Part shown: positions 5,800 through 33,664 of the stretch, piece by piece | Layout: each line of letters opens with the position of its first letter | How positions within the stretch are numbered: the first letter of the stretch is position 1 | Program-made: the position numbers and the translations under genes | Source: Candidatus Eiseniibacteriota bacterium | Lineage (GTDB): Bacteria > Eisenbacteria > RBG-16-71-46 > CAZAMP01 | Assembly: GCA_965224245.1 (NCBI GenBank) | Contig: OZ245046.1 | Span: 5,312,001-5,376,000 of the forward strand | Direction of reading: 5' to 3' | Length of the DNA stretch: 64,000 bases | Notes under the pieces: generated by a model | The model's database searches: none | What the model was told of the DNA's origin: nothing | Seen by the model: the letters and a program-made list of their open reading frames with translations, nothing else

Positions 5800-8700
5800 T
5801 CAGCCGGCGGGAGACGCCTCGAAGTACACCGTGGCCAGGGGTGGCAGATCGAACCGGAGCGCGTTCGGGTGCCCGTGCACCGGCGTCTCGGTGCTCTCCA
5901 CGCCGTCCAGCACGCCGACGCCGCTGCCTCCGTAGCGTTCGGCGTCGCTGTTCAGGAGCTGGCGCCAGCGTCCCGCCCGGGGTACGCCCAGCGAGAAGTC
6001 CCGGCGCACCACCGGCGTGAAGTTCGAGACCACGAGCACGATGCCGTCACCGCCGGCGTCCCTGCGCAGGAACGAGTACGCGCTCCGATCCCGATCGTGG
6101 CAGTCGATCCACTCGAACCCCGTCCCCGGCGAGCAGTCCGACGTGTGAAGGGCGGGCACGGTGCGATAGATCGCGTTCAGATCGCGGAGCCAGCGCGAGA
6201 GTCCCGCGTGGGCCGGCATGTCGGAGACGACCCAGTCGAGCTCGGACTCGTGGTTCCACTCCTGCCACTGCCCGAACTCCGCGCCCATGAACAAGAGCTT
6301 CTTTCCGGTCTGGCCGTACATGTAACCGTAGAGCGCGCGCAGGGTCGCGAACTGCTTCCACCAGTCGCCGGGCATCTTCGAGAGCAGCGACCGCTTTCCG
6401 TGCACGACCTCGTCGTGCGACAGCGCCAGAAGAAAACGCTCGGAACCGGCATAGATGCCCCGGAACGTGAGCTTGTCGTGGTTGCCGCCCCTGAACAGCG
6501 GATCGAGCGCCACGTACTCGAGGGTGTCGTTCATCCACCCCATGTCCCACTTGTAGTCGAAGCCGAGCCCCCCTTCGTGAACCGGCGCGCTGATCCTGGG
6601 CCACGAGGTGGACTCCTCGGCGATGCGAAGCGCGCCCGGATGGCTCGACCCGATCGCGTCGTTCAGCTGCTTCAGGAACTCGATCGCCTCCAGATTCTCG
6701 CGGCCCCCGTGGCGGTTGGCGACCCACTCGCCCTCGTTGCGGGAGTAGTCGAGGTACAGCATCGACGCCACCGCATCCACGCGGATCCCGTCGACGTGAT
6801 AGCGCTCGAGCCAAAGGGTCGCGCTCGAGATCAGGAACGCCCGAACCTCGGGACGCCCGTAGTTGAAGATGTGGGTCTTCCAGTCCGGGTGGAAGCCCTG
6901 GCGGGGATCGGCGTGCTCGAACAGGTGGGTCCCGTCGAAGTAGCCCAGTCCGTGTCCGTCCGTGGGGAAGTGCGAGGGCACCCAGTCCAGGATGACGCCG
7001 ATGCCGTGGCGGTGCAGCTCGTCCACGAGGAACATGAAGTCCTCGGGAGACCCGAACCGGCTCGTGGGAGCGAAGTACCCGGTGGTCTGATATCCCCAGG
7101 ATCCGTCGAAGGGATGCTCGGTGATCGGCATCAGCTCGACGTGGGTGAAGCCGAGGCGCGAGAGATAGCGCGGCAGCGCGTCGGCCAGCTCGCGGTACGT
7201 GAAGGGGCGCCCCTCGGCGTGCCGACGCCAGGAACCGAGGTGCATCTCGTAGATCGCGATCGGCGCGTCCGGTGACTGGCGCTCGGCGCGCGACGCCATC
7301 CATTCGGCGTCACCCCACTCGTACGCGACCTCGTGCACGACGGATGCCGTCCGGGGCGGGATCTCCGCGCGGCTCGCGAACGGATCGGCCTTCGTGCCCT
7401 CGTGACCGCCGACCCGGGAGATGATCCGGTACTTGTAGACCGCGCCCTCGGCCGCCTCGCGAACGAAGCCCGCCCAGACGCCCGAGGCTCCCACCGGCTT
7501 CAGCGGGTGGGCGGTGGGACTCCAGCCGTTGAAGGACCCGATCACGTGTACCGAGCGCGCCGCGGGCGCCCAGACCGCGAAGTGCACACCCTTCTCGTCG
7601 CCGTCGGTGACGACGTGCGCACCGAGCTTCTCGAACAGACGGAAGTGTCGACCCTCGTTGAAGAGGTACACGTCATCGGGCGTCATCGCGACCTCGGCCC
7701 GCGAGCGGACCGTGACGCTCGCGCGCTCGGCCCGGGCACGCCCGGCGCCGGCGTGCTCGGCGCGGATGCCGCCGGCCCGCGCATCACGGATCGCCGCCAT
7801 GCAGCGCGCCGCACCCGGGTGCTGGGCGATCTCCTCCAGCGAGAGCGCCGCCACGTGACGCCAGTTGGGGTGGGCGTCGGTGGTGCCCGGGACGTTCTGC
7901 GCGCGCGTCTCGAGCCAGAGGTCCTCGAGCGACACCATCGTGATCTCGGCGGGTCGGCGTGCGATCTCGCGGAGCGTGCCCACGAGGAGATCCTCCGGCG
8001 TCGGCTCTCCTCCGACGTGGCCACGGAGCCGCAGCACGCGCTCGAGATCGCCGAGGGCCTGAACGCGCCTGGCGCGAGCCTCGGGCTCCTTCTCCGCGGG
8101 GAGCAGGCCCACCTCGACCCACGTCGTGATGTCACCGCCCTCGAGGAAGCGCGCGAACGGAGACATGTCGTGCGTGTTCAGGCTCGTGACGGATTTCGGT
8201 GGACGATCCTCGAAGGCCGATACGGCATCCCGCTCCAGCTCGCCCTGCACGACGTGCATGCGCAGGATGTGATGCCGGGCGAGACGTTCGCGAACGCCGC
8301 CGGCCACGGTGCCGAGATCCTCACCGATCAGGATCGTGTCGTGCCGGACCGACTCGATGCAGAGAATCGCGTAGAGCTCGTCGAACGGCATGCGCACGTA
8401 GCCGCCGGACTCTCCCGGCATCCCCGACGGGATCCAGTACTGGCGATGCAGTCCCAGCGCGTGATCGATCCTGAGCGCGCCGGCACGCCGGCAGTGGTGT
8501 CGGATGAACGCGATCACGTGCTCGTGACCGTGGTGCCGCGACACGTCCGGTCGGATCGGGGGCAGGCCCCAGTCCTGCCCCGACGGGGCCAGCGGATCGG
8601 GCGGCGCCCCGACCGCAGTGTTCATCGCGAAGAGGTCGCCCTCTCGCCACGTGTCGAAGCTGTCGGCGTGCACGCCGATCGGGAGGTCCAGGTACAGCCC

Positions 8701-9879
8701 GGGGCCGTGCGCGGAGAGCCGATCGGCGCACGCGGCGAGCTGCTCGTCCGCGATCCACTGCACGTACTGGTGGAGACGGAACGCATCCTCGTCGTAGCCA
8801 TCCGGTGTGAGCGCGCCGAACCGGGCCTCGTGGGACCACGCCGACCAGCCGCACTTCTCGCGTTCGCCGGCCGCACGAAACGCGGCATAGTCGTCGAGCA
8901 TCGGACGGGACGCGCGAAACGCCTCGAACTCCGCGCGGCGCGGCGAGTCGCCCGAGAAGAAGCCCTTGCTGAGGCGCTTCAGTACGGTTCGCATCAGCGT
9001 CATCTGGGTGCGTGGATCGGTCCGGTCGCCGCTCCGCAGCCTGTCGAACGCATGCCGGATGCGTTTGCCTTCGAGGATGCGCTGGGCGGCGCGGTTCGTC
9101 GCGAGCTCGGGGATCCGTTCCAGGTCGACGTGGAGCTCGTTCCAGAACAGCCGGCTCACGGGCGCGTAGGGACTGATCTCGTACGGCTCGTCCAGGAACG
9201 CGGGCAACAGCGGAAGCGTTCCGACCAATCCGGCGCCGTAGCCGGCCGCCCAGTCCCCGAGGGCCGCGAGGTCGCCGAAGCAGCCGGTGCCGTGGGAGCG
9301 CTCGGAGTGGAGCGCGTACAGGGGAACGAACACGCCCCACGCGCCGAACGCGCCGTCGCCGGAGCCGTGCGCGGGGCGGTACGCATGCTCTGGCGCGGAG
9401 AAGACGCGACAGACCACCGGCTCGCCGCCGAGCTCCAGGCGGAGCTCGTGATATCCGATCGGCAGGCCTCCCGGGAGGGTGAGCCGGAGGCGCACGTACG
9501 GTACGCCGCCGACCTCGTAGGCCCGGACCTTCGGCAACGTGACGAGATCGACGTCCAGCGGGCGTTCCTCGCCCGACTCCAGCTCCAGCATCCCGACCAC
9601 GCGACCGGTCGCCATCCGGGCCGGCATGCGCAGGGAGACCGACACCGGACCGCCGTTCCACGCGACCGCGATCGGGTCGAGCGTCTCGGTGGCCAGCCGG
9701 CGCACGCGCTCGTCGAGCGCGCGTTCGACGCCCTCGCTCGGGGGAGAGCCCCGGAGTGCTCCGATCAGCGCCTCCAGCGTGTCCGGCGCAGCCGAGACGG
9801 TCTTGCCGAGCACGTCGGTGTACTCGGTGAGAATGCCGTGCAGCCGAGCCAGTCGGCGCAACGCGTGGCTGACCGCCAC
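5800..9879 (-). CDS. malQ-glgB: Fused 4-alpha-glucanotransferase (GH77, MalQ) and 1,4-alpha-glucan branching enzyme (GH13, GlgB)
   Basis: GH77 motifs YLDLPIG, ALRIDHALG, LIGEDLG and THD; GlgB motifs HPFDGSWGYQ, GIRVDAVASMLY, IAEEST and LSHDEVVHGK; single 1359-aa frame. Confidence 0.93.
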   Translation of the reverse strand: MAVSHALRRLARLHGILTEYTDVLGKTVSAAPDTLEALIGALRGSPPSEGVERALDERVRRLATETLDPIAVAWNGGPVSVSLRMPARMATGRVVGMLELESGEERPLDVDLVTLPKVRAYEVGGVPYVRLRLTLPGGLPIGYHELRLELGGEPVVCRVFSAPEHAYRPAHGSGDGAFGAWGVFVPLYALHSERSHGTGCFGDLAALGDWAAGYGAGLVGTLPLLPAFLDEPYEISPYAPVSRLFWNELHVDLERIPELATNRAAQRILEGKRIRHAFDRLRSGDRTDPRTQMTLMRTVLKRLSKGFFSGDSPRRAEFEAFRASRPMLDDYAAFRAAGEREKCGWSAWSHEARFGALTPDGYDEDAFRLHQYVQWIADEQLAACADRLSAHGPGLYLDLPIGVHADSFDTWREGDLFAMNTAVGAPPDPLAPSGQDWGLPPIRPDVSRHHGHEHVIAFIRHHCRRAGALRIDHALGLHRQYWIPSGMPGESGGYVRMPFDELYAILCIESVRHDTILIGEDLGTVAGGVRERLARHHILRMHVVQGELERDAVSAFEDRPPKSVTSLNTHDMSPFARFLEGGDITTWVEVGLLPAEKEPEARARRVQALGDLERVLRLRGHVGGEPTPEDLLVGTLREIARRPAEITMVSLEDLWLETRAQNVPGTTDAHPNWRHVAALSLEEIAQHPGAARCMAAIRDARAGGIRAEHAGAGRARAERASVTVRSRAEVAMTPDDVYLFNEGRHFRLFEKLGAHVVTDGDEKGVHFAVWAPAARSVHVIGSFNGWSPTAHPLKPVGASGVWAGFVREAAEGAVYKYRIISRVGGHEGTKADPFASRAEIPPRTASVVHEVAYEWGDAEWMASRAERQSPDAPIAIYEMHLGSWRRHAEGRPFTYRELADALPRYLSRLGFTHVELMPITEHPFDGSWGYQTTGYFAPTSRFGSPEDFMFLVDELHRHGIGVILDWVPSHFPTDGHGLGYFDGTHLFEHADPRQGFHPDWKTHIFNYGRPEVRAFLISSATLWLERYHVDGIRVDAVASMLYLDYSRNEGEWVANRHGGRENLEAIEFLKQLNDAIGSSHPGALRIAEESTSWPRISAPVHEGGLGFDYKWDMGWMNDTLEYVALDPLFRGGNHDKLTFRGIYAGSERFLLALSHDEVVHGKRSLLSKMPGDWWKQFATLRALYGYMYGQTGKKLLFMGAEFGQWQEWNHESELDWVVSDMPAHAGLSRWLRDLNAIYRTVPALHTSDCSPGTGFEWIDCHDRDRSAYSFLRRDAGGDGIVLVVSNFTPVVRRDFSLGVPRAGRWRQLLNSDAERYGGSGVGVLDGVESTETPVHGHPNALRFDLPPLATVYFEASPAG

Positions 9880-9995: not shown

Positions 9996-12470
9996 CTACC
10001 GACCGGCCACGACGATCCGATCCGACACGACGTTCGCGCCGCTCGCCGCGCGCACCCAGTACACGCCCGGTACGACGGGCTCGCCCCGGGTCGTCAGGTC
10101 CCATGTGAACGTGTGAGACCCCGCGGGTCGGCGGCCGTCGGCGAGAAGCGCCACCTCGCGACCCGTGGCGTCGTGCAGGGACATCCGCAGCGGTCCCGCC
10201 GCCTCGAGCTCGATCGCGACCGCCACGAGCCGGGACGCCGGTCGGGGACGCACCGACGCGATCCGGACGGGCCCGCCGCCGAGGTCCGGCGTGGCCGTGT
10301 CCGGCGCGTGCAGCGAGGCGGGCTCTCCCAGGACGACGATGCCGTGCGAGGGCAGCCCGATCGACACCGACTGCGAGAACCCGTCCACCGGGATCGCGTC
10401 GCTCGCGAACGTGCCGGGGTTCTCCGGACCGTCGCCGCCATACGTCGCCGCCTCGCTGTTGAGACGTTCGGCCCAGTCGCCCGGTGACGGAACGCCGACG
10501 CGATAGCTCGCGAAGTCGGTGTTGGAGACGTTCACGACGACCACGAACGCACCCTCGCCGTCGAAGCGCCGGAACGCGAGCACGTTGCCCGACTCGTTCA
10601 GGTGGAACACCTGCCAGGCGGCGCTGGCCCGGAAGGCGCTCTCGGAACGGCGAAGCGCGATCGCGTCCTGGAAGAACCGGAACACGTCGGCATAGGTGGT
10701 CTTCTTCGACCAGTCGATGCGATTGCCGGTGTCGGTGCCGAAGTCCGTGTCCTCCAGCCACTCGGCGCCCTGCAGCATCGCGGGCACCCCGGGCGCGAAC
10801 AGCACGAGCCCCTGTGCGAGCTTGGTGCGTCCCTTCGCGTACTCGTCGTCGTGCGGGAACGTCGGATCGATCGCCTTCACGATCCGTCCGCCACCGCTCG
10901 TCGGCCAGGCCTCGTCGTGCAGCTCGAGGTACGTGGTGACCGAGCTGCCGTCCAGGTACGTGCCACCGCCGTTGATGATGTCGCGGATCTTCCACATCTC
11001 GGGATCACCGAAGGCCGCGTCGAGGAGCTCCTCTCGCAGCCGATCGGTGAACGCGTCGAAGTACTGGCTGTCGAAGCCGGCGCCTCCGAGCGACGTGGGA
11101 CGCGTGATCCACGGGTCGTCGGGAAGCTGCTCGGCGATGACGATCTTGTCGATCCAGCGGTTGTCGACCTCGTCGTTCAGCCGCTGCATCAGCGACCACC
11201 CCGCCGCCTCCTGCGGGGGGATGGTCATGTAGGCGGTCGCGTCCATCCGGAAGCCGTCGACGCGATACTCGTCCAGCCACAGGTGGGCGCTGTGGGCGTA
11301 GTAGTCGCGGACCTCGTCGGCGTCGAAGTCGGCCTGCGCGCCCCACGGCGTGTCCACCTGCGGCGTGTCGAAGTAGATCTGAGAGCCGTCGTAGAACCAC
11401 AGATAGTTGTCGTCGAACGAGAAGTGGTTCCAGACCACGTCCAGGAGCACGGCGATGCCCTCGGCGTGGAGCGCGTCCACCATCGCCTTGAAGTCGTCGG
11501 GCGAGCCGTACTTCCACTCGGGTGCCCAGGCCGTGATCGGGTTGTAGCCGGCCGACAGGTCCCCGGGGAACTCCGTGATCGGGTTCAGCATCACCGCGGT
11601 CACGCCGAGCTCTCCCAGGTGCCCGGCGCGCGCGGCCACGTCGACGTAGCGAGACGGAAACGGCGTGGCGCCCATCGGGTCGTTGCGACCGGCGAACGTG
11701 CCCACGTGCAGCTGGTAGATGATGAGGTCGTCCAGCGCCGGCGTGACGAAGTCGTTCGTGACCCAGGCGTATCCGAAGGGATCGACGATGATCGAGTTGA
11801 GGTTGTCCGATGGATCCAGCGCGCGGGCCCGCGCATCGCTGTTCCAGACCGATCCGTTGAAGAAGTACTTGTACGCGTGTCCCGCCACCGCCGCGGCCAC
11901 GCGGCCGATGAAGTGCTCACCCACCTTGGGCAGGAGATCCGCAGTGGACCAGCCGTTGAACTCGCCCCGCACGTGGACGCTGGTGCGGGTGGGCGCCCAG
12001 ACCCGGAACACGGTGCCGCCCTCCGGCAGCGGCGTGGCGCCGACCGGCGCGTGCGAGAGCGTCGAGAAGTCCAGCACGAACCCGCCGTCCACCGGAGGGG
12101 CGTCGGACATGCCGGTCACGCTGTAGTAGTCGACGTCGGTGCCGTCGATGACCTCGAAGTAGTACGACAGGGACGACGCCGCGGTCGCCGGGATCGTGGC
12201 CGACCAGATCGCATACGCCCCGCGCGCCTCCAGGTACGACGCCGGAATGCTCGCGACCGACCCGTCGTCCACGATGACGTTCACCGCGGAAAGATCGAAG
12301 TGATACGCGGCGAGGCGCACGTCGAACGCCTGCCCGTCGACGGGGCAGATCGGGCGGCGATCCTGCCATCCGACGTGCGAGATGCCGTTCCACTGGACGT
12401 CGTCGTCGGCGGAGACGGTCGTGGCGAGGGTGGCGATCAGGGCTGCCGTGACCGGGATGGTGGATCGCAT
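9996..12470 (-). CDS. Secreted GH13 enzyme (Ig-like N-domain, CBM48, branching-enzyme/TreZ-like catalytic domain) with C-terminal FlgD-Ig-like domain
   Basis: Signal peptide; FRVWAP CBM48; catalytic motifs GFRMDAT, IAEQ and LHDE; C-terminal HDATGREV...FTWD...PGVYWVR. Confidence 0.88.
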   Translation of the reverse strand: MRSTIPVTAALIATLATTVSADDDVQWNGISHVGWQDRRPICPVDGQAFDVRLAAYHFDLSAVNVIVDDGSVASIPASYLEARGAYAIWSATIPATAASSLSYYFEVIDGTDVDYYSVTGMSDAPPVDGGFVLDFSTLSHAPVGATPLPEGGTVFRVWAPTRTSVHVRGEFNGWSTADLLPKVGEHFIGRVAAAVAGHAYKYFFNGSVWNSDARARALDPSDNLNSIIVDPFGYAWVTNDFVTPALDDLIIYQLHVGTFAGRNDPMGATPFPSRYVDVAARAGHLGELGVTAVMLNPITEFPGDLSAGYNPITAWAPEWKYGSPDDFKAMVDALHAEGIAVLLDVVWNHFSFDDNYLWFYDGSQIYFDTPQVDTPWGAQADFDADEVRDYYAHSAHLWLDEYRVDGFRMDATAYMTIPPQEAAGWSLMQRLNDEVDNRWIDKIVIAEQLPDDPWITRPTSLGGAGFDSQYFDAFTDRLREELLDAAFGDPEMWKIRDIINGGGTYLDGSSVTTYLELHDEAWPTSGGGRIVKAIDPTFPHDDEYAKGRTKLAQGLVLFAPGVPAMLQGAEWLEDTDFGTDTGNRIDWSKKTTYADVFRFFQDAIALRRSESAFRASAAWQVFHLNESGNVLAFRRFDGEGAFVVVVNVSNTDFASYRVGVPSPGDWAERLNSEAATYGGDGPENPGTFASDAIPVDGFSQSVSIGLPSHGIVVLGEPASLHAPDTATPDLGGGPVRIASVRPRPASRLVAVAIELEAAGPLRMSLHDATGREVALLADGRRPAGSHTFTWDLTTRGEPVVPGVYWVRAASGANVVSDRIVVAGR

Positions 12471-12690
12471 GTCGGGTCGTCCCGTGGTCGAGGGTCGGAG
12501 TCGTCGGACGAGGGGCGCTCGCGGACGAGCTTATCACGCTCCTCGTGACCGGCGGACGCCGCCGCATCGCGTCGTGGCGCAGAGCCGTGAGTGTTGCCTC
12601 CAGGTTTCGCACCCGGACGCCGATGCTGAACATGGGGCTCGGTTGCTCACGTCGAGCGTCCGGCCGGGACTCGATGGGGAGGGCAGTGAC

Positions 12691-13884
12691 ATCGCTAACG
12701 TGCTCTTTTGCTGGGAGTTAGGTGGCGGCTGGGGCCACATCGGCCGCGTGTCCCCCCTGGCGTGCTGGCTGGCCGAGGCCGGCCACTCGGTGGACTTCGT
12801 GAGTCGCGACGTCGTCCGTGCCACCGCGGTCGGGATGCCGGGGCGCGTGCTGCCCGCGCCGAGGGTGTCCACGCCGCGTGAGCGCCAGATCCCCAGTCCG
12901 ATGAACTACGCCGAGGTGCTCTCGAACCTCGGATGGGACAGCGAGGCGTCACTGTCGGGGCTCGTTCGTGCCTGGCGCGATCTGATCCTCGTGTGCGGCG
13001 CCGACCTCGTGGTCGTGGACCACGCACCGGGAGCCGCGCTGGCGGCCCGCACGCTGCGATGCCCGTTCCTGTCGGTGAGCGCCGGTTTTGCGGTGCCGCC
13101 GAACGTCGCCCAGCTGCCGCTCCTGCGCGACGGCGTGCCCGAGCCGCGCGTCGCGGCCGCCCACGCGGCCGAGCGCGGGCTCCTGGAGCGGATCAACCGC
13201 ATCGGCGAGACGCACGGGCTCGCACCGCTCACGTCGGTGGGCGCGCTGTTCCAGGACGCGGAGTCCGTGCTGCTGACGACGTTCGCCGAGCTCGACCACT
13301 ACCCCGATCGCCCCGGGTCTCTCGAGTACGTCGGCAGCTGGACCACCGGGTCGGGCATGCAGCCGACCTGGCCGGCCGGGGACGGCCCGAAGGTGTTCGC
13401 CTACCTGAGCGGGCTCCCGGTGAGCCGGTACGTGCTGAAGCGGCTCGGACGGCGGGACATTCCCACGGTCGCGTACGTCGACGACGAGCCGGTCACCGGC
13501 GGTGGCAGCGTGACCGTCCTCCCCGTGCCCGCCGACCTGGCGATGGCCGCGCGGGAGTGCGACGTGGCGATCACGAACGCGGGGCACGGCGTGGCCACCG
13601 CGATGCTGCGGGCGGGCAAGCCACTGGTGATGATCCCACGGGTTCTCGAGCAGCAGCTCCTCGCGCGACGGATCCGGGCGCTCGGCGCCGGTGAGACGGT
13701 ACCGCTCGAACAGCCGCGGACGTTCGAGGACGTGTTCGCCACGGTCGTCGGGGACGACGTGTACCGGCGCGCCGCGGAGGCGTTCTCCGAGCGCTACGCC
13801 GACTGGATCGACGAGGATCGGGCCGTGCACGTGGCCGATGCCATCGGAGCGGTGGCTCGCCGGGTCGCCGGCGGAGTGGCCTGA
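12691..13884 (+). CDS. GT-B fold glycosyltransferase (GT1/MGT-like); start uncertain (ATC12691 or GTG12700)
   Basis: N-terminal WELGGGWGH and C-terminal AITNAGHG...GKPLVMIP...EQ motifs. Confidence 0.8.
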   Translation: MANVLFCWELGGGWGHIGRVSPLACWLAEAGHSVDFVSRDVVRATAVGMPGRVLPAPRVSTPRERQIPSPMNYAEVLSNLGWDSEASLSGLVRAWRDLILVCGADLVVVDHAPGAALAARTLRCPFLSVSAGFAVPPNVAQLPLLRDGVPEPRVAAAHAAERGLLERINRIGETHGLAPLTSVGALFQDAESVLLTTFAELDHYPDRPGSLEYVGSWTTGSGMQPTWPAGDGPKVFAYLSGLPVSRYVLKRLGRRDIPTVAYVDDEPVTGGGSVTVLPVPADLAMAARECDVAITNAGHGVATAMLRAGKPLVMIPRVLEQQLLARRIRALGAGETVPLEQPRTFEDVFATVVGDDVYRRAAEAFSERYADWIDEDRAVHVADAIGAVARRVAGGVA

Positions 13885-13911: not shown

Positions 13912-14739
13912 TCAGCCCTTGACGCCGCCGAGCGTGAGCCCAGAGACCAGGAAACGATTCAGCACCAGGAACAGCACGACCACGGGGACGCTCACGAGCA
14001 GGCTCGCCGCCGCATAGTTCGCCCACTCGGTCTGGAAGCTCCCGGCCAGGTTGGCCAGCCCCAGGGGCAGCGTGTAGAGCGCCTGCTTGTTCAGGATCAC
14101 GCGCGCCACGATGTACTCCGACCATCCCGACATGAACGAGAAGAGCCCGGTGATCACCAGCGCCGGGCGCGCCAGCGGCAGGACCACACGCACGAACGCA
14201 CCGATCTGGCTCGTGCCGTCCACGCGAGCCGCCTCCTCCAGCTCGACCGGGATCGTGTCGTAGTAGCCCTTCATCGTCCACACGCAGAACGGCAGCGCGG
14301 TGGCGGTGTACGCGACGACGATGCCGAGCATCGTGTCCACGAGCCCGAGGCGGCTCATCAGCACGTACAGCGGCAGCAGGAGCATCGTCGCCGGGAACAT
14401 CTGGGTGACCAGGAGCCCCACCATGCCCGCGCCGTGACCCCGGAACCGGAACCGCGAGAACGCGTAGCCGGCGGTCGACGCCAGGGTCACCCCGAGGAGG
14501 GTGACCGACCCCGCGGCCACCGTCGAGTTCCGGAGCCAGAGGAAGAAGTCCTTCTCGAAGAGGACCTTCCGGTAGGCGACCAGGGTCGCGTCCTCGGGGA
14601 TCAGCCGGAGCGACGTCGAGTAGAGCGCGTCTCCGGGTCGGAGCGAGATGCCGAGCACCACCAGGATCGGGTAGATGATCGCGAACGTGAGCGCGGCGAG
14701 CACGACGTGAAAGAGGAGTCGCCGGAGAACGTGCGTCAT
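13912..14739 (-). CDS. malG: Maltose/maltodextrin ABC permease, MalG-like
   Basis: TQMFPATM and KGYYDTIPVELEEAARVDG (EAA loop); ATGA overlap with the malF stop. Confidence 0.88.
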   Translation of the reverse strand: MTHVLRRLLFHVVLAALTFAIIYPILVVLGISLRPGDALYSTSLRLIPEDATLVAYRKVLFEKDFFLWLRNSTVAAGSVTLLGVTLASTAGYAFSRFRFRGHGAGMVGLLVTQMFPATMLLLPLYVLMSRLGLVDTMLGIVVAYTATALPFCVWTMKGYYDTIPVELEEAARVDGTSQIGAFVRVVLPLARPALVITGLFSFMSGWSEYIVARVILNKQALYTLPLGLANLAGSFQTEWANYAAASLLVSVPVVVLFLVLNRFLVSGLTLGGVKG

Positions 14740-19365: not shown

Positions 19366-19466
19366 GACGCGCTCGAGCGATGGGCTCAACGTGGGACCGT
19401 TCGTGGTTCGATCGGACGGCCGAGGTCGAACGCGACACTCCCCTGCCCAGGGACGAGGGAGGTGCC

Positions 19467-22247: not shown

Positions 22248-22284
22248 GGTCACCTCCTTCGAACGGCGCGCCGGCGGCGCGCGT

Positions 22285-26102: not shown

Positions 26103-27058
26103 CTCGGCTCTCCGAACGGCACTCGGAGCGACAGCTCGTACGAGATCCCGAGGTCGTCGTTCGTCACGAACGCGACGTCGACCAGAAAGCGCTCGGCGGC
26201 CAGGCCGACGCCTCCGGCGAAGTCCCCGCCCGAGACCCCCGCGCGGAGCGCGAACACGTCGTAGAAGGACACCTCGGCTCCCGTGTTGAAGAGCCAGTCC
26301 CCGCGCGCGTCCTGGTTGAGGCTCAGCGCGAACACCGACTCCGGATGCCACCGATACGAGAGGCTGACGTCGTGGATGCGCTCGAGCCGCGTGCGACCGC
26401 CGCCGTCCACGAAGTCGAACGTGGGCTCGATCACGTTGCGGACGACGTAGCCCACGGCCACCGTGGGGGACAGGTTCACCAGCGCGGACAGATCCGCCGT
26501 GAGCTTGCGCTGGGAGCCGTAATCGATCTCGCCGGCGTCGGCGTCGTAGCTGACGCTGGCGAGCTTGACGTTGGCCCCGATCGCCAGCGCGTAGCTCCCG
26601 GTGTAGGCCACGACGTCGCGCGCGACGCCGAACGTGACCATGTCCTCGGAGACGACGTTCTCGACCCCGGTGTGATGCCACGCGACCGAGACCGACGTCC
26701 GGTCGCGGTGATGGACGGCGCTCGCGAACTGGGTACCCAGGTTCTCCACGACGTAGGGCCGGCTGTGCACGAAGAGGATCTCGCTCCGGCGCATGGTGAC
26801 CAGGGCGGCGGTGTTCCACGACACGGCCGACCCATCGTCGGCGATGGCCGAGTAGGCGCGCCCGATGGCGGTCCCTCGTGCCCCGGCGAGCATGCGCTCG
26901 AAGTGGGCGCCCACCGGCTGCGGCGCGAGGGCGCTCAGGGCGACGGCGGCGAACGCCCAGACGAGGATCGAAGCGTCCGGTGACGTGACCCTTGCCCCGG
27001 CGTGGCGCGAGAGCGCGGCGCGCGCCGCCGCCCGAGCGCGGTTCGCCCGCCCGCTCAT
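26096..27058 (-). CDS. PorV/PorP-like (FadL-fold) outer-membrane barrel
   Basis: GARGTAIGRAYSAIADDGSAVSWNTAAL matches the PorV/UPF0164 N-terminal motif; GAEVSF...LRAG...DLGISYELSL. Confidence 0.8.
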   Translation of the reverse strand: MSGRANRARAAARAALSRHAGARVTSPDASILVWAFAAVALSALAPQPVGAHFERMLAGARGTAIGRAYSAIADDGSAVSWNTAALVTMRRSEILFVHSRPYVVENLGTQFASAVHHRDRTSVSVAWHHTGVENVVSEDMVTFGVARDVVAYTGSYALAIGANVKLASVSYDADAGEIDYGSQRKLTADLSALVNLSPTVAVGYVVRNVIEPTFDFVDGGGRTRLERIHDVSLSYRWHPESVFALSLNQDARGDWLFNTGAEVSFYDVFALRAGVSGGDFAGGVGLAAERFLVDVAFVTNDDLGISYELSLRVPFGEPRW

Positions 27059-28311
27059 CTCACCACCGTGAACGCACGCTTCGCGCGGCTCGGGCCGACT
27101 TCCTCGACCACGCTCAGGATGTAGATACCCCCGGGAACCGGCCGATCGGCGCCGTCACGTCCATCCCAGCGATCCTTGGTCGGGTCGGTGGGAGAGGTGG
27201 CCGGCCGGACGTCCTCGACGTAGAGCGAGCGAACGACCTGGCCGCGCATGTCGTACACGCGGGCGGTCAGGCTCACCTCGCGGAAGTCCTCGGACGTAGA
27301 CGGGTCGAGACGGATCTCGAACTCGAGGTCTCGCGACTCCTCGGGCGAGACGATCGGGTTGGTGATGTGGAGGCTCGTGACGTCGAACTTGATGCCCTCG
27401 ATGGGTGGACGCCGCTTGAAGCGGATGCGCTCGCGGACCGAGGCGCCGAAGTCCGGGTAGCCCGGGACGCCATCGCCGTCCACGGCGTCGTCCGGGTCGG
27501 CGTCCCCGTCCAGCGGAAGGATCGCGTAGTTGTCGATCGTGACCAGCGCGGCGCTGTCCACCGAGTGTCCGTTGAAGTTGTCCGGTGCGGAGTCGGGGCC
27601 TCCGGTGCCGTCGGCGCCGGCGGTGACCACCGCGGCGAGCTTCAGGCGGTCCATGCCGTCGGGGACTCGCCACACGTCGGCGTCCAGCGCCGGCACGAAG
27701 TCCTGCTCGGACTGACCGAAGAAGACCAGCGACCACGGAATCGCGAACTCCATCGCACGATCGGTCGAGCTGCCGTCGAAGGTCGCCACACCTCGGAACT
27801 GCGTGGACGCGACCTGCACGACCTGATTCACGCCGGTGACCGTCCACATCTGCGGCGCGCCGTTCCGGTCCCAGGTGGCGACGAAGAAGTCGGGAGCGAA
27901 GTCACTGGAGAAGACGAAGTTACGGCGCCAGGCATTGACCTCGGTCATGCCGTCGAGACCGGCGACGCCGTCGGCCGAGGGCACCTCGTCGGCGACGTCC
28001 ACGAACAGGATCGTGTTGTTGTCGAAGATGAAGCCGTCAACGGCCAGGTAGAGCGAGTCGGCGTCCCAGGTGACCTTGATCTGGTTGACGTCGTTGAAGG
28101 GCCCCCACTCGGAGTCGTTCAGCGACTCCTCGAGCGTGTTCAGCTCCTCGTTGACGCCGAACACGACCTCGTCGGCCTCGAAGTCGGACGTGAAGCCGTC
28201 GACCTCGAGTCGACCGCCGCGGTCGAGCTCGGTGATGGCGTCGGCCCGTGGCGCGATCGCGCACAGCAAGAGCGCGAGACCGGCGCGGACGACCGGAGCC
28301 TCCAGATACAT
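27055..28311 (-). CDS. Secreted protein with DOMON/CBM9-like domain and C-terminal FlgD-Ig-like domain
   Basis: Signal peptide; VTWDADSLYL and EFAIPW; NPIVSP...VYDMRGQVVRSL...WDGRD...PGGIYIL tail. Confidence 0.8.
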   Translation of the reverse strand: MYLEAPVVRAGLALLLCAIAPRADAITELDRGGRLEVDGFTSDFEADEVVFGVNEELNTLEESLNDSEWGPFNDVNQIKVTWDADSLYLAVDGFIFDNNTILFVDVADEVPSADGVAGLDGMTEVNAWRRNFVFSSDFAPDFFVATWDRNGAPQMWTVTGVNQVVQVASTQFRGVATFDGSSTDRAMEFAIPWSLVFFGQSEQDFVPALDADVWRVPDGMDRLKLAAVVTAGADGTGGPDSAPDNFNGHSVDSAALVTIDNYAILPLDGDADPDDAVDGDGVPGYPDFGASVRERIRFKRRPPIEGIKFDVTSLHITNPIVSPEESRDLEFEIRLDPSTSEDFREVSLTARVYDMRGQVVRSLYVEDVRPATSPTDPTKDRWDGRDGADRPVPGGIYILSVVEEVGPSRAKRAFTVVR

Positions 28312-28410: not shown

Positions 28411-31400
28411 ATGATTTCCCGACGTTCCACGATGGCGAGCGGACGCGCTCTCGAGCGGCTCGCCGTTGTGGTGGTGGCGCTGTCGATGCTGGCGCCGATG
28501 GCCAGGACCGCCGATGCCGAGACGGTCACGTTCCGATGCGAGGCGCCGGGCGCGAACGCGGTCTTCCTGGCGGGGTCGTTCAACGAGTGGTCGCCAACCG
28601 CGCAGGCCATGTCCGACGCGGACGGCGACGGTGTCTTCGAGGTCGCGCTCGACCTCGAGACCGGGGCGTACCCCTACAAGTTCGTGATCGACGGGACCTG
28701 GACCACCGATGAGACGGCCGCCGGGTTCGAGGCCGACCCGTACGGCGGACGGAACTCGATCGTGTACGTCGGCATGGAGCCTCCGGCGCCCGAAGCGGGC
28801 GGGGGCCGGGCGGCATCGCCGACGGGAGCCGCCACCGCCGCCGCGCCCGCGAGCTCGTCCAGGACGCACGACGTCACGTTCCGGTACGAGCCCGTCATCG
28901 GGGGCGAGCGGGACGTCTTCGTCGCCGGGACGTTCAACGGCTGGGTCACCGATCAGGATCGACTCACCGACGCCGATGCGGACGGCGTCTTCACCCTCAC
29001 GATGCCGCTGGCCGAGGGGCGCCACGACTACAAGTTCGTCGTGGACGGCAACTGGATGACCGACGAGAACGCGGTCGAGTTCGCCGACGACGGCTTCGGG
29101 GGCCGGAACTCCGTGCTGATCGTCGACGCCCAGGGCCAGGTGACCCCCGAGCGAGCGCAGGCCGCTCCGGCGGCGGCCGACGGTGCGCTCTACGACGTCA
29201 CGTTCACCCACGTCGCACCCGCCGCGCGCGAGGCGTTCCTCGCCGGCAGCTTCAACGACTGGTCGACCACCGCCACGCCGATGACGCGCTCGGACGACGG
29301 CACGTTCTCGACCACGCTCGTGCTGTCCCCGGGCTCGTATCCTTACAAGTTCGTCGTGGACGGCACCTGGACCACCGACGAGACGGCCGACCAGTTCGTG
29401 GACGACGGCTTCGGGGGCCGGAACTCGGTCATCGTGGTCGACGAGCGGTTCACGTCGGTGCCGCTGGAGCGGGGGGACGGGCTCGTCTACGAGGGCGACA
29501 TCCAGCACACGGGATCGATCGCCGAGTGCAACATGGTCTCGGACACCGAGGTCGTGTTCCGCGCGCGCGCGTATCGCAACGACGTGGACGGCGTCTCGCT
29601 GATGTGCCGCCGGAGCGTGGAGGGGCCGTGGGACGAGCGTCCGATGACGCGTTTCTCCAGCGACGCCGCGTTCGACTACTTCGAGATCACCTACAGCCGG
29701 CCCGACCCGGTCGACGTGGTGAACTACGGCTTCCTGTACCGGGATGGGGACGTGACCCGCTGGCTGGGTCCGCGCGGGTTCGAGGCCGCCGGCGTCACCG
29801 GAACCGCGTTTCTGTTCAACGCCGAGACCGCGGTCGTGCTGGATCCGCCCGGCTGGGTGCGCGACGGCGTCTTCTACCAGATCTTCCCCGATCGCTTCCG
29901 GAACGGCGACAGGAAGAACGATCAGAAGTTCGAGGAGTGGTACTACGAGGGACGCACGCGATTGCCGCGGGTCGGCCCGCAGAACGGCGAGTACTACCAC
30001 TTCGTGAAGGACTGGGACGACTTCTCCGGTCTGGCCGAGAGCCCCTATCGCTCGGACGGGAAGCCCGACTACTTCTCGTTCTACGGCGGCGACATCCAGG
30101 GGGTCATGGACGAGCTCGACTACCTGGCCGACCTCGGCATCACGATCATCTACTTCAACCCGCTGAACGAGGCCCGGTCGAATCACAAGTACGACGCCAC
30201 CGACTACATGACGCTCGACCCCCACTTTGCCGACCCCGAGCTGTTCGCCCGGTTCGTGGCCGAGGCGCACGAGCGGGGGATCCGGATCGTCGTCGACACC
30301 GTGTTCAATCACACCGGCGACACGCACTGGGCGTTTCAGGACGCGGTGAAGAAGGGGCGCGAGTCGGAGTACTGGGACTGGTACGAGTTCAAGCGCTGGC
30401 CGCTTCCCGAGCAGGGCGAGTACGACGCCTCCAGCTACTACGCGTGCTGGTGGGGCTTCGGATCGCTGCCCGACCTCAACTACGACCTCGTGCTCCCCGC
30501 CGATCGCGAGCACACGGTGTCGGACGTCTCGCAGGCCACGCCCAACCAGCCCGTGGTCGACCATCTGCTCGAGGTGGCGACGTTCTGGATCCAGGACATG
30601 GACATCGACGGCTTCCGTCTCGACGTTCCGAACGAGGTGCCGTTCTGGTTCTGGAAGATCTTCTGCGCCGAGGTCCGGCGTCTGAAGTCCGACGTGTACA
30701 TCGTGTGCGAGATCTGGGGAGATGCCACGACCTGGATCACGCCCGACCTCGTGGACGCGACCATGAACTACCGCTACTTCCGCGACCCGGTCCTGCACTG
30801 GATCGGACAGGGACAGGGCAACGCGGTCTCGTTCGATCGCGAGCTGGCGCCCGGCCGCGTCGTGTACGCGCCGCAGTCGCAGCAGGTCATGATGAACCTC
30901 ATCGACAGCCACGACACGGTGCGCTTCCGCACCCAGGCCAGGGGCGACGCGCGGCGGCTGAAGCTCGCGGCGCTGTTCCAGATGACGTACGTCGGAGCGC
31001 CGCACATCTACTACGGCGACGAGGTGGCCATGGAGGGCGGCGCCGACCCCGACTGCCGCCGTCCGTTCCGCTGGAGCTGGACCGAGGATCCGCTGCGCCG
31101 CGACGTGCACGATCACTACGCGAAGCTGATCGACATCCGCAAGCAATGGCGCGCGCTTCGCCGGGGCACGTTCACGCCGCTGGTCGCGTCCGGGAACACG
31201 TACGCGTATCTCCGCCAGGACACCGAGGGATCGGTGGTGGTGGTGCTGAACAACGGCGAGAAGGCAGTCGAGGCCGCAGTGCCGCTGGACGGCGATCGGG
31301 CGGGGGCCGTGTTCGTGGATGCCTTTACAGGAGAACGAGTTAACGCCCAGGGAGGGGAGCTCTCGGTGGCCGTGCCGCCGGTCAGCGGACGGATCTTCAC

Positions 31401-31425
31401 GCTCGCCCATCCGAGCGGGTCCTGA
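28411..31425 (+). CDS. Exported GH13 neopullulanase/cyclomaltodextrinase/amylopullulanase-like enzyme with three N-terminal CBM48 repeats (alternative start 28432)
   Basis: Signal peptide; three AG(S/T)FN.W...YKFV.DG.W..D repeats; FYQIFPDRF, SNHKYD, DGFRLDV, EIW and DSHD catalytic motifs. Confidence 0.92.
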   Translation: MISRRSTMASGRALERLAVVVVALSMLAPMARTADAETVTFRCEAPGANAVFLAGSFNEWSPTAQAMSDADGDGVFEVALDLETGAYPYKFVIDGTWTTDETAAGFEADPYGGRNSIVYVGMEPPAPEAGGGRAASPTGAATAAAPASSSRTHDVTFRYEPVIGGERDVFVAGTFNGWVTDQDRLTDADADGVFTLTMPLAEGRHDYKFVVDGNWMTDENAVEFADDGFGGRNSVLIVDAQGQVTPERAQAAPAAADGALYDVTFTHVAPAAREAFLAGSFNDWSTTATPMTRSDDGTFSTTLVLSPGSYPYKFVVDGTWTTDETADQFVDDGFGGRNSVIVVDERFTSVPLERGDGLVYEGDIQHTGSIAECNMVSDTEVVFRARAYRNDVDGVSLMCRRSVEGPWDERPMTRFSSDAAFDYFEITYSRPDPVDVVNYGFLYRDGDVTRWLGPRGFEAAGVTGTAFLFNAETAVVLDPPGWVRDGVFYQIFPDRFRNGDRKNDQKFEEWYYEGRTRLPRVGPQNGEYYHFVKDWDDFSGLAESPYRSDGKPDYFSFYGGDIQGVMDELDYLADLGITIIYFNPLNEARSNHKYDATDYMTLDPHFADPELFARFVAEAHERGIRIVVDTVFNHTGDTHWAFQDAVKKGRESEYWDWYEFKRWPLPEQGEYDASSYYACWWGFGSLPDLNYDLVLPADREHTVSDVSQATPNQPVVDHLLEVATFWIQDMDIDGFRLDVPNEVPFWFWKIFCAEVRRLKSDVYIVCEIWGDATTWITPDLVDATMNYRYFRDPVLHWIGQGQGNAVSFDRELAPGRVVYAPQSQQVMMNLIDSHDTVRFRTQARGDARRLKLAALFQMTYVGAPHIYYGDEVAMEGGADPDCRRPFRWSWTEDPLRRDVHDHYAKLIDIRKQWRALRRGTFTPLVASGNTYAYLRQDTEGSVVVVLNNGEKAVEAAVPLDGDRAGAVFVDAFTGERVNAQGGELSVAVPPVSGRIFTLAHPSGS
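28522..29440 (+). repeat. Three tandem CBM48-type domain repeats
   Basis: Protein repeats; shared DNA such as GACGACGGCTTCGGGGGCCGGAACTC near 29086 and 29401. Confidence 0.85.
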
Positions 31426-31548: not shown

Positions 31549-32286
31549 ATGAAGAAGTCGTTCGAGCTGGCGCTGGCGGTCGCCCTGGTCGCGATGATCG
31601 CGACCTCCGCCGACGCGTTCTACGCTCGAGGCGCGTACTACGCGGATTGGGCCGCCGACGCCGGCAACGAGCTTCGCGACGACGGGACGAACGGCGACAA
31701 GGTGGCCGGCGACGGGATCTTCTCGGGTCTGATCACCGCCGACGTGGTGGCCGGGGACTACGAGTTCAAGGTCGCCAACGCGGACTGGTCGATCTCGTAC
31801 CCCAACAGCAACGTGTGGATCACCACCACCGAGGACAACCAGCAGATCCTGTTCACGTTCGACACGAACACGTACGACGACGGGTGGTTCCCGGCCACGA
31901 ACATCGTCTGGAGCGACGCGCTTCGTCTCGGCTCGAGCTGGGAGATCACCGGCGGAGCTTCCGAGATCGGATCGTGGACGCCGGGCGATGGCGCGGCGGC
32001 GTCGTTCGTGAACGATCGCTGGGAGGTCGTGGTCGACTTCGCGACGACCGGCATGATCGAGTACAAGTGGACGGCGGACGCCGTCTGGACGGTACAGCAG
32101 TTCGGTACCGACGGCGTCGGCAGCAACGCCGACAACATCACCTACGACATCGGCGCCGGCGCGCGCCGCGCTGACCACGTGTTCGCGTTCAACCCGGCCA
32201 ACGGGCGAGGCTACCAGGCCGAGGGATCCACCCCGACGCTGGATGCCTCGTGGAGCCGGATCAAGGAGCTCTACGTCCACGAGTAG
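31549..32286 (+). CDS. Secreted protein with CBM-like modules and C-terminal SWxxIKxxY tail
   Basis: AGGAGG RBS; signal peptide; LRDDGTNGDKVAGDGIF loop; YEFKV and IGSWTP..IEYKW modules; ends TLDASWSRIKELYVHE. Confidence 0.82.
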   Translation: MKKSFELALAVALVAMIATSADAFYARGAYYADWAADAGNELRDDGTNGDKVAGDGIFSGLITADVVAGDYEFKVANADWSISYPNSNVWITTTEDNQQILFTFDTNTYDDGWFPATNIVWSDALRLGSSWEITGGASEIGSWTPGDGAAASFVNDRWEVVVDFATTGMIEYKWTADAVWTVQQFGTDGVGSNADNITYDIGAGARRADHVFAFNPANGRGYQAEGSTPTLDASWSRIKELYVHE

Positions 32287-32389: not shown

Positions 32390-33664
32390 ATGTCGCGTTC
32401 CGAGATCCGTATTCCCATCACGGCGCCGCGCTGGGTGCGCGACGGTTTCGTCTACGAGGCCTTCCCCCGTTGCCACGGCCCTCGCGGCACGCTCGACGAC
32501 GTCATCGACGATCTCGACCGGCTGCGGACGCTCGGCGTGCGCACGCTGTGGCTGATGCCGGTCCATCCGATCGGATGCGAGCGGCGCAAGGGGACGTGGG
32601 GCTCGCCGTACGCCGTGCGCGACTACACGCGCGTGGATCCGCTCCTGGGCGGCGACGACGCGCTGATCCGGCTCGTCGAGCGCGCGCACGATCGGTCGAT
32701 CCGTGTGATCGTCGACTGGGTGGCCAATCACGCTGCGTGGGACAACACGCTTCGCGAGCGTCACCCGGACTGGTTCCGGCGCAACGCGGCGGGCCGGCGA
32801 CATCCCCCGGTTCCCGACTGGGACGACGTGATCGACCTCGACTACCGATCCCGCGCGCTTCGCGAGTACATGTCCGCCTGCATGATCGACTGGGTTCGCC
32901 TTTTCGATCTCGACGGCTTTCGCTGCGACGTGGCGGCGATGATCCCCATGGACTTCTGGCGCGAGACGATCGCGCGCGCCGACATGGTGAAGCGGGATCT
33001 GTTCTGGCTGGCCGAGGCCGAGGGCCGGATCGTGCACGATCGGGCGTTTCACGCCACGTACGACTGGAGCCTGTACGGGGCGCTGGTCGAGGTCGCCCGC
33101 GGCCGGCGTCCCGCGGCCGACGTCGCGCGTGTGGTCGCGCGGAGCGAGCGCGAGCTTCCCGAGGGGGCGTTGCGACTCTCGTTCGTGGAGAACCACGACA
33201 AGACGCGCGCGGTCTCCGTGTTCGGGCTCCGACGTGCGCGCGCGGCTTTCGTGCTGACGATGTTCCTGCCCGGACTGCCACTGGTGTACGCGGGTCAGGA
33301 GCGAGGCGCCGAGGGGTGGACATCGATCTTCGAGCGCGGGCCGATCGACGGCGGCGACGCGGAGTGGGAGTCGGAGGTGGCCCGTCTGGCCGCCGTCCGG
33401 AGCGCGTCGCCCGCGCTGGCGGCCGGGTCGTTTCGACCGCTGGCGACGACCGAGCCCCGGTCGCTGGTCGCGTTCGAACGCGCCGGCGCCGGAGAGCGCA
33501 TCGTGTGCGTGGCCAACCTCGGCTCGCGTCCGGCGGCGCTCGTGCTGGAGGACGCCGCCGGCGGGCGCGACCTGATGACCGACACGACGATGACGCTCGA
33601 TCCGGGTCGCCCCGCCGTGCTCGCGCCGGATGAGGTGATCGCGGTCCGGCTCGGAGTCTCCTGA
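32390..33664 (+). CDS. Cytoplasmic GH13 alpha-amylase family hydrolase
   Basis: GSPYAVRDY, DWVANH, DGFRCDVA, LAE and ENHD motifs; no signal peptide. Confidence 0.9.
   Translation: MSRSEIRIPITAPRWVRDGFVYEAFPRCHGPRGTLDDVIDDLDRLRTLGVRTLWLMPVHPIGCERRKGTWGSPYAVRDYTRVDPLLGGDDALIRLVERAHDRSIRVIVDWVANHAAWDNTLRERHPDWFRRNAAGRRHPPVPDWDDVIDLDYRSRALREYMSACMIDWVRLFDLDGFRCDVAAMIPMDFWRETIARADMVKRDLFWLAEAEGRIVHDRAFHATYDWSLYGALVEVARGRRPAADVARVVARSERELPEGALRLSFVENHDKTRAVSVFGLRRARAAFVLTMFLPGLPLVYAGQERGAEGWTSIFERGPIDGGDAEWESEVARLAAVRSASPALAAGSFRPLATTEPRSLVAFERAGAGERIVCVANLGSRPAALVLEDAAGGRDLMTDTTMTLDPGRPAVLAPDEVIAVRLGVS

Follow-up and report, generated by a model that had tools for sequence, protein, structure and literature searches.

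How does an alpha-glucan cross the outer membrane of a bacterium whose glucan locus encodes none of the transporters expected for such a polymer? The question is raised by a cluster of 17 genes (numbered g1 to g17) at positions 5800-33664 of a 64,000-nucleotide stretch of the genome of a Candidatus Eiseniibacteriota bacterium (assembly GCA_965224245.1, contig OZ245046.1, positions 5,312,001 to 5,376,000), the whole of which is called the window here. To our knowledge, textbook accounts let polysaccharides enter through the outer membrane only by way of SusCD and other TonB-dependent transporters or of porins of the LamB/CymA type. The first-pass annotation described a cluster of about 28 kb, with products that could be sorted by their export signals, and every item that it listed was recovered by gene calling and by Pfam and NCBIfam searches. 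We conclude, with a probability of roughly 0.6, that the locus encodes an alpha-glucan (starch, glycogen or maltodextrin) utilisation system whose outer-membrane module is neither SusCD, nor another TonB-dependent receptor, nor a LamB/CymA porin.

Genes were called on the basis of third-position GC content by frame, Pfam, NCBIfam and start mapping (the window has about 69% G+C); for signal peptides and lipoboxes, the translations were inspected by eye, with no predictor. Six genes, g14, g13, g12, g11, g10 and g9, form a single operon on the minus strand (20451-28311), with g14 first. At three junctions the end of one gene overlaps the start of the next, by 4 nt at g14/g13, 7 nt at g13/g12 and 1 nt at g12/g11, and the remaining junctions are gaps of 31 nt and 3 nt. 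The genes g15 to g17 are transcribed divergently from this operon. Two of its products are large barrels. Protein g12 (24492..26102, minus strand; 536 residues) consists of a signal peptide and a barrel of about 24 strands, with no N-terminal domain, and ends in KGNF. Protein g11 (22285..24492, minus strand) has a signal peptide, an N-terminal carbohydrate-binding module of family 48 (CBM48; about residues 42-124, CBM_48 46.5 bits) and a barrel of about 24 strands (residues 145-735).

Neither barrel could be assigned to a known family. Pfam and NCBIfam searches with a threshold of E ≤ 0.01 gave no barrel family for either window protein, g11 or g12. Among 50 members of the g12 family, none matched a TonB-dependent receptor, Plug, LamB or usher model in Pfam at E ≤ 1, and three weakly matched Porin_4 (best E 0.0034). 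At the same threshold, none of the 50 members of the g11 family matched any barrel family, including TonB_dep_Rec (PF00593) and Plug (PF07715), and this family matched starch-binding modules only. The earlier remark that no SusC, other TonB-dependent receptor or LamB is recognisable in the cluster was borne out for both families. More distant g12 relatives gave no match in 39 of 40 cases at E ≤ 0.01. Homologues were found in a large protein collection for both g12 (145) and g11 (186), and those bearing a name came almost exclusively from Candidatus Eisenbacteria metagenome-assembled genomes, in which they were annotated as “hypothetical” or “glycogen-binding domain-containing”. An exhaustive search of 1.84 billion representatives with a g12-family profile retrieved just 181 clusters with E ≤ 0.001. 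In the genome studied here, each barrel is encoded by a single-copy gene. The alignment of the g12 and g11 profiles with hhalign was confined to a C-terminal stretch (g12 455-508 and g11 618-679; E 6.7e-4, probability 27%), which hints at a distant paralogy of the two sequences.

Several observations made during these searches concern individual members of the g12 family. A distant member from Elusimicrobiota (P0337; 698 aa) carries an N-terminal CsgG/LpoB-like domain of lipoprotein type (CsgG, E 1.9e-7), another small globular domain joined to a barrel of this kind. In a genome of the same phylum as the window, a g12 homologue (G080:C6:111895-113501) lies in three consecutive pieces in different open frames; the gene may be disrupted, or the assembly may be wrong at this point. 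Two single-protein scans towards the genomic contexts of distant g12 relatives found no relative. The assignment of g12 to DUF6029, to which ESM Atlas features alone point with a score of 0.97, was considered and rejected: PF19494 matched neither g12 (E ≤ 1) nor the 50 members of its family, and hhalign gave an E value of 0.2 for g12 against the true DUF6029 protein of this genome. The latter is encoded elsewhere (C1:3866569-3867945; 90 and 63 bits).

AlphaFold2 models of the two barrels, built from alignments of 50 sequences, were confident for both g12 (pLDDT 85.5, pTM 0.79) and g11 (pLDDT 88.6, pTM 0.78). In each of them about 24 transmembrane strands were counted from the DSSP lists, with g12 residues 292-305 merged into one strand and six short loop strands of g11 ignored. 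Short and long connections alternate in both models, so that both termini of each protein would face the periplasm, and the last loop of each barrel is long and highly conserved. Mature g12 starts with strand 1 and mature g11 with its CBM48, and there is no Plug domain in either. Residues 40-127 of g11 match CBM48 domains with an rmsd of 1.5-2.6. By the usual topology of barrels, this N-terminal module would be periplasmic, and may serve as a plug in cis or as a capture domain.

The best structural matches of g12 (VIA) were the usher pores FimD (Z 17.7; 363 residues aligned, rmsd 5.6) and PapC (Z 17.3), with alignments of 363-380 residues over g12 residues 41-536. They were followed by Tom40/VDAC, OpdQ, SusC BT1762 (Z 14.2), AlgE (13.4), Wzi (12.1) and CymA (11.1), with further scores of Z 11.1 for PelBC, 9.9-10.3 for LptD and 12-14 for the barrels of TonB receptors. 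LamB (1mal) was listed for g12 by Foldseek at a TMq of 0.28 and was not among the best 50 VIA matches, an absence that excludes nothing. For the barrel of g11, the TonB receptors FyuA, FptA and Cir ranked first (Z 15.0-15.3), practically level with porins and ushers (Z 14), and Foldseek also matched it to TonB-receptor barrels (E 8e-9, TM about 0.36). Overall, the structure searches revealed only a generic similarity to large barrels, and no family-level assignment was obtained for g11 or g12.

The gene downstream from g11 encodes a small lipoprotein, g10 (21840..22253, minus strand), in which a tether follows the lipidated cysteine and precedes a CBM48 (AMPK1_CBM, 32.1 bits). The tether, for which the consensus including this cysteine is C-S-x-LNFIKRRLPPP, comes directly after it and is near-invariant from Eisenbacteria to Cloacimonadota; residues C22, K29, R31, L32 and P35 are invariant in an alignment of 44 orthologues. 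The complex of g12 (residues 40-536) with g10 (residues 22-135), the only pair considered, was predicted with alignments supplied for both partners. It yielded an ipSAE of 0.78 (0.80, 0.78 and 0.78 in three runs), whereas the best of three controls scored 0.00. In the calibration of the tool, 58 of 80 solved complexes but only two of 110 mismatched pairs attained this mark, figures that are no more than a rough guide where, as here, custom alignments are supplied. The runs had at least 88% of their contacts in common, with a partner pLDDT of at least 82.

The 135-147 contacts between the two proteins involve alternating residues of nearly all 24 strands of g12, together with turns (215-218, 355-357, 389-392, 429-431, 462-463 and 493-494) and two loops (137-162 and 502-526). 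On the side of g10, the predicted contacts include tether residues 25-32. A contact pattern extending all round the barrel would place g10 inside the lumen, towards the periplasmic mouth, which is the only position allowing it. In the predicted complex, g10 has thus entered the barrel of g12 from the periplasm. The g12 residues in contact with it are polar (R, E, Q, N, K, H, W, Y), and most columns that are invariant in the g12 family are among them. Conservation averaged 0.79 over these residues, versus 0.56 elsewhere, a value reached by none of 10,000 random sets of residues.

Small elements gating or filling large barrels are known from other systems, and the predicted pair resembles three of them in part. 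The ushers FimD and PapC, the best structural matches of g12, form barrels of 24 strands in which a small beta-sandwich domain acts as the gating plug. However, g12 has no Usher match in Pfam and no N- or C-terminal periplasmic domains, its plug would be a separate lipoprotein rather than an insertion in the barrel, and there are no chaperone or pilin genes. In LptD-LptE, as predicted here, the lumen of a very large barrel is filled from the periplasm by a small lipoprotein of the same system. The two pairs are unrelated in sequence, the fold similarity to LptD is low, the plug considered here has a carbohydrate-binding fold, and its cargo and direction would presumably be glucan import, as opposed to lipopolysaccharide export. 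The third, CymA of Klebsiella oxytoca, lets bulky alpha-glucans through passively and independently of TonB, with a mobile element in its lumen as the gate, and g12 would similarly combine a putative TonB-independent passage for alpha-glucans with a lumen element. Unlike g12, CymA has 14 strands and is gated by its own N-terminal peptide; it has no sequence match to g12 and is among the lower-scoring structural matches.

We investigated the conservation of the locus in 78 loci obtained from a contig scan (one genome per species) by tblastn with the 17 window proteins. Sorting by record titles gave 55 Eisenbacteria-type loci and 23 low-identity loci, the latter from Cloacimonadota (17), Neomarinimicrobiota (two) and Stygibacter (one), with three unlabelled. 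Synteny was counted only in loci with enough flanking sequence for the gene concerned. The order g14-g13-g12-g11-g10 was colinear in all of the 47-50 Eisenbacteria-type loci that could be scored, and was largely kept in the low-identity loci. Thus, g13 was adjacent in 50/50 Eisenbacteria-type and 14/19 low-identity loci, g14 in 49/49 and 15/18, and g10 in 47/47 and 16/16. The g11 gene was present in 49/49 Eisenbacteria-type loci (47 at ≥50% coverage) and in 18/18 low-identity loci, the tblastn match in the latter covering only the CBM48 part.

Co-occurrence with transport and hydrolase genes was scored where a locus extended for 8 kb or more in each direction, for genes lying within 10 kb. All three of MalE, MalF and MalG were found in 20/27 Eisenbacteria-type and 7/8 low-identity loci, and a GH13 (glycoside hydrolase family 13) gene of the g15 type was found in 17/27 and 7/8, respectively. 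One or the other was present in 26/27 and 8/8 loci, or 34/35 in total, in agreement with the earlier expectation that the outer-membrane genes would accompany mal and GH13 genes. The counts for g17 are not independent, as its best matches fall on the g15-type gene. Of the other genes, g7 was present in 19/27 Eisenbacteria-type loci with long flanks, and g9 in 19/27 Eisenbacteria-type but 0/8 low-identity loci. No tblastn match was obtained for g3 or g8 in any of the 78 loci, and g1 and g2 were not conserved in the 10-kb flanks, where they gave fragment matches only (query coverage 0-20% for g1). The conserved core is the six-gene operon together with MalEFG and the probably periplasmic GH13 with three CBM48 modules, and is smaller than 28 kb. 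The treatment of the whole cluster as one system consequently holds for this core, and not for about a third of its length (g1-g3 and g8), which lies outside the conserved system.

In a locus of Cloacimonadota, Pfam identified the complete set, with all genes pointing the same way. It begins with MalE-F and MalG, continues with tailed proteins, a PorP_SprF-like barrel, a further barrel, a barrel with CBM48 and a lipoprotein with CBM48, and ends with a CBM48/X25 protein, a CBM48x3-GH13 and a tailed GH57. The same colinear set is present in a deep family of Eisenbacteria. In one Cloacimonadota locus (L087, 631-2919, plus strand), a MalE-like domain and a MalF-like permease domain share a single open reading frame (ORF) of 762 aa, which is either a fusion or the product of a missed stop or frameshift. 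Across genomes, g12 was detected in 60 of the 206 species genomes of the window's phylum (41/121 high-quality genomes and 31/83 genera) and in 27 of the 232 species genomes of Cloacimonadota.

The genome in which the window lies (6.94 Mb, 27 contigs, 97% complete) was also searched for transporters of known families. It encodes seven TonB-dependent receptors, none of them in the window, the nearest lying 40 kb past its end. No match to LamB (PF02264) was obtained among genome and window proteins, or to SusD (PF07980) in the genome, whereas the E. coli and Bacteroides thetaiotaomicron controls, respectively, were matched. The lack of SusC/SusD and LamB noted for the locus by the first-pass annotation extends, for LamB and SusD, to the genome as a whole. 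A single ATPase of the MalK type (OB_MalK) was found genome-wide, about 13 kb beyond the end of the window.

The same genome encodes components of a type IX secretion system (T9SS): a SprA-type translocon (540 bits, summed), a PorU sortase (469.6 bits, cut-off 420) adjoining a PorV, seven PorV-family paralogues above the cut-off with about 10 weaker ones, and at least 50 matches resembling T9SS tails. Because of this complement, the FlgD-like tails of the locus are best interpreted as T9SS sorting domains. The cargo had been called “T9SS-like”; its tails are present, and it is better read as the cargo of a real T9SS, although GldM had no match in the genome (its control likewise matched nowhere) and GldK gave a match below the threshold only. 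Three further large proteins with FlgD_ig-type T9SS tails are encoded in the window on the plus strand (34336-36705, 43744-48219 and 51164-53383); they comprise an LVIVD-repeat protein, a protein of 1491 aa and another of 739 aa. Directly after the gene for the 1491-aa protein comes an ORF of 397 aa (48220-49413) with no family match.

The remaining genes of the cluster can be arranged by the compartment in which their products would act. Three products carry both a signal peptide and a tail. The first, g2 (9996..12470, minus strand), has a CBM48 and a GH13 domain (Alpha-amylase 58.4 bits, CBM_48 32.9 bits) ahead of its C-terminal T9SS tail (FlgD_ig 29.3 bits, cut-off 27), and is a probable surface or secreted alpha-glucanase. 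The second, g7 (17220..19289, plus strand), has unassigned domains and a T9SS tail (TIGR04183 29.8 bits, cut-off 23; FlgD_ig 34.6). The third, g14 (27055..28311, minus strand), has a probable CBM9-like domain and a T9SS-type tail (FlgD_ig 17.3 bits, below the cut-off of 27); its ESM Atlas neighbours belong to carbohydrate-binding and Por_Secre_tail clusters, which we take as a lead only. Protein g13 (26096..27058, minus strand) is a small barrel resembling PorV, PorQ and PorP. The earlier description of a PorV-like barrel is right as to the family matched, NF033709, but the match is below the threshold (41.4 bits, cut-off 90), and the Cloacimonadota orthologue similarly scores 21.5 bits for PorP_SprF (cut-off 22.3). 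Sequence searches of g14, g7 and g13 against solved structures gave matches to FlgD-type tails or none. As in the T9SS anchors PorV/PorQ-PorZ and PorP/SprF, the g13 barrel adjoins a tailed protein, in a genome with SprA, PorU and PorV, but it lies below the family cut-offs and the tail of g14, judged by eye, is of the ordinary FlgD_ig type rather than type B.

The last gene of the operon encodes a lipoprotein (g9; 20451..21836, minus strand; lipobox LGC) in which X25-like modules (22.8 bits, sub-threshold) flank two Ig-like CarboxypepD_reg domains (75.9 bits in two stretches). By analogy with SusE/F, it may be an accessory binder. Its lipobox cysteine is followed by the acidic stretch DDAPDS, in contrast to the basic stretch of g10; an acidic stretch in this position resembles the surface-export signal of Bacteroidota lipoproteins.

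Protein g15 (28411..31425, plus strand) has a signal peptide, three CBM48 modules (AMPK1_CBM 150.5 bits in three stretches) and a GH13 domain (Alpha-amylase 195.2 bits), with no tail or lipobox. It scores below the cut-offs of the MalZ (342.8) and AglB (307.8) models, and is probably a periplasmic GH13 enzyme of the neopullulanase/cyclomaltodextrinase type. It is followed by g16 (31549..32286, plus strand), with a signal peptide and X25/choice-of-anchor-X modules (X25 36.7 bits; choice_anch_X 43.9, cut-off 25), and by g17 (32390..33664, plus strand), a cytoplasmic GH13 lacking a signal peptide (Alpha-amylase 111.8 bits). The inner-membrane importer is encoded on the minus strand by g4 (13912..14739; MalG-like permease, BPD_transp_1 59.6 bits), g5 (14736..15617; a MalF-like permease of short form, 293 aa, BPD_transp_1 68.7 bits) and g6 (15617..16879; a MalE-like solute-binding protein, SBP_bac_8 99.8 bits), all with Pfam domains above their cut-offs. 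MalE had been described as exported without a tail; it also has a lipobox (LSC) that had gone unmentioned.

Protein g1 (5800..9879, minus strand) is a MalQ (GH77)-GlgB fusion of 1359 aa with no signal peptide, and is placed in the cytoplasm (GH77 295.8 bits, CBM_48 75.3; GlgB model NF003811 932.5 bits, above the cut-off). Such a fusion would couple the disproportionation of imported maltodextrins to branching, leading to a glycogen-like store. The two other genes of the cluster, both on the plus strand, encode a GT1-like glycosyltransferase (g3; 12457..13884; EryCIII-like_C 25.2 bits, sub-threshold) and an NAD-dependent epimerase/dehydratase (g8; 19380..20414; Epimerase 55.2 bits). The genes flanking the cluster are unrelated to it. 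At the end of the window (58691-63992, minus strand), a secretin gene (Secretin, Secretin_N, STN) with PilM-like, T2SSM-like and PilX_N-like genes looks like a type IV pilus or type II secretion-like cluster.

These elements can be combined into a candidate pathway. At the surface, the GH13 enzyme g2, g7 and g14, exported by the T9SS, and the lipoprotein g9 would bind and cut the polymer; their domains are observed, and their location is part of the proposal. By analogy with T9SS anchors, the co-transcribed barrel g13 may keep g14 attached to the cell. Glucan chains would then cross the outer membrane through g12 and g11, for which the barrel models are confident and transport is the proposed role. 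The g12 pore is predicted, with controls, to be gated by the CBM48 lipoprotein g10 in its lumen, and the N-terminal CBM48 of g11 might be an equivalent plug or a periplasmic capture domain. In the periplasm, g15 would trim the chains; the MalE lipoprotein and the MalFG permeases would import the products, and cytoplasmic g17 and, in this genome, MalQ-GlgB would process or store them. In view of the lack of any evident TonB coupling, chains would pass through passively or be drawn in by binding, and the periplasmic CBM48 domains would act as a ratchet. The abundance of periplasmic CBM48 modules (g10, the g11 N-terminus and three on g15) suggests that long chains reach the periplasm, in addition to small sugars.

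This arrangement has the same division of labour, within a single locus, as the Sus system of B. thetaiotaomicron. The putative surface components are an amylase (g2, with GH57 in its place in Cloacimonadota) and lipoproteins that bind starch (g9); a large dedicated barrel in the outer membrane is paired with a lipoprotein (g12 and g10), and a GH13 of neopullulanase type would act in the periplasm (g15). It differs in having no SusC-type TonB-dependent barrel, Plug or SusD, in the T9SS tails of its surface enzymes and in import across the inner membrane by an ABC system. The partner is also different: a CBM48 protein of 114 residues predicted to enter the barrel from the periplasm, whereas the Sus partner caps it from outside. 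The importer resembling MalE/F/G and the cytoplasmic glucanotransferase of the MalQ type (in this genome) recall the maltose regulon of E. coli. Here, however, there is no LamB, the barrels have about 24 strands rather than the 18 of LamB, MalE is a lipoprotein and MalK is encoded outside the locus.

The alternative that fares best would make the barrels scaffolds rather than channels. According to this explanation, which we consider unlikely, g11 and g12 are outer-membrane scaffolds on the attachment side of the T9SS, of the PorQ-PorZ or PorP type. They would keep tailed enzymes and starch-binding modules on the outside of the cell, and the oligosaccharides would come in by way of general porins. 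An operon shared with the PorV/PorP-like barrel g13 and the tailed g14 is consistent with such a role, as is the multiplicity of PorV-family proteins in the genome. However, the ~24 strands counted in g11 and g12 far exceed those of PorV/PorP-type barrels, which have 14 strands. In addition, the CBM48 partner of g12 is predicted to lie in the lumen on the periplasmic side rather than being displayed outside, the topology of g11 would likewise place its N-terminal CBM48 in the periplasm, and the barrels are single-copy proteins tied only to mal and GH13 genes.

It is still less probable that g11, g12 or both are degenerate TonB-dependent, SusC-like transporters that still work with TonB. TonB-receptor barrels do head the fold lists of g11, and SusC BT1762 is among the matches of g12, but porins and ushers lie within 1 Z unit of these receptors for g11. 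The 50 members examined in each family yielded no TonB_dep_Rec or Plug match even at E ≤ 1. No Plug precedes either barrel: the signal peptide of g12 leads straight into strand 1, and mature g11 has a CBM48 at its N-terminus. No TonB box was recognised in g11 or g12 by eye, the DSSP count of about 24 strands compares with 22 in TonB-dependent transporters, and the genome is devoid of SusD.

Export of an alpha-glucan (a capsule or glycogen-like exopolymer) through the module appears highly improbable: the MalQ-GlgB fusion, the GT1-like gene, the fold similarity of g12 to AlgE, Wzi and PelBC and its nearness to DUF6029 in the ESM Atlas would fit, but MalQ-GlgB, the glycosyltransferase and the epimerase lack conservation across the 78 loci, the conserved genes encode a binding protein-dependent importer and hydrolases with signal peptides, and DUF6029 itself is not supported by profile comparison. 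A published study ties DUF6029 tentatively to polysaccharide secretion porins (PMC9603273).

Several points weigh against the interpretation of the locus as an alpha-glucan uptake system with a new outer-membrane module. AlgE, Wzi and PelBC are polysaccharide-conducting barrels known as exporters, and the language-model lead from g12 to DUF6029 likewise points to barrels of exporter type. The strand counts and the position of the g11 CBM48 were derived from secondary-structure lists, not from coordinates. The g12-g10 score is the model's own confidence, residues lining the lumen of g12 would be conserved with or without g10 binding, and in g10 the difference in conservation between the interface and the remainder of the protein is not significant (0.75 versus 0.69, p = 0.087). 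The MalE (142.8 bits, cut-off 291), MalF (179.6, cut-off 392) and MalG (173.9, cut-off 261) matches are all below the NCBIfam equivalog cut-offs, so that we infer maltodextrin specificity from context. With GldM unmatched and GldK below threshold, the T9SS may be divergent or incomplete, notably in its motor part. Finally, the presence of g12 in only 60/206 and 27/232 species genomes marks it as an accessory trait.

With these points taken into account, the proposal of a distinct polysaccharide-utilisation architecture is supported: the barrels fall into no known TonB-dependent, SusC or LamB family, and their genes travel with mal and GH13 genes in other genomes. The role of the barrels as channels is what we infer from this setting. 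A more specific and more tentative interpretation, for which the odds are somewhat unfavourable, is that the module represents a new class of glycan translocon in the outer membrane, working independently of TonB, in which a barrel of about 24 strands is gated by a CBM48 module. This module would be supplied in trans (g10 in g12) or in cis (the N-terminal fusion of g11), would bind the alpha-glucan in the pore and, together with the other periplasmic CBM48 domains, would ratchet long chains inwards. Polymer uptake of this kind would be independent of SusCD, would have arisen among relatives of Bacteroidota (Eisenbacteria, Cloacimonadota and Neomarinimicrobiota), and would be coupled to enzymes displayed by the T9SS.

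Polysaccharide utilisation loci are a known kind of locus; the outer-membrane module of the present one is undescribed. Our literature search, which did not extend to supplementary tables, found no paper describing the g11 and g12 barrels or this locus, and none linking Eisenbacteria with type IX secretion. For Cloacimonadota, passages of two papers mention Mal transport, GH57, GH13 and CBM48, but not these barrels (PMC8542988, PMC12590816). The conserved locus replaces both textbook routes with an uncharacterised barrel family and a predicted carbohydrate-binding plug, for a substrate that is testable. If this interpretation is correct, it would add a new principle of transport and would provide a function for proteins currently annotated as “hypothetical” or “glycogen-binding domain-containing”. 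It would also help to explain the use of carbon by uncultured phyla of soil, sediment and digesters, and would bear on the evolution of polysaccharide utilisation loci beside the T9SS.

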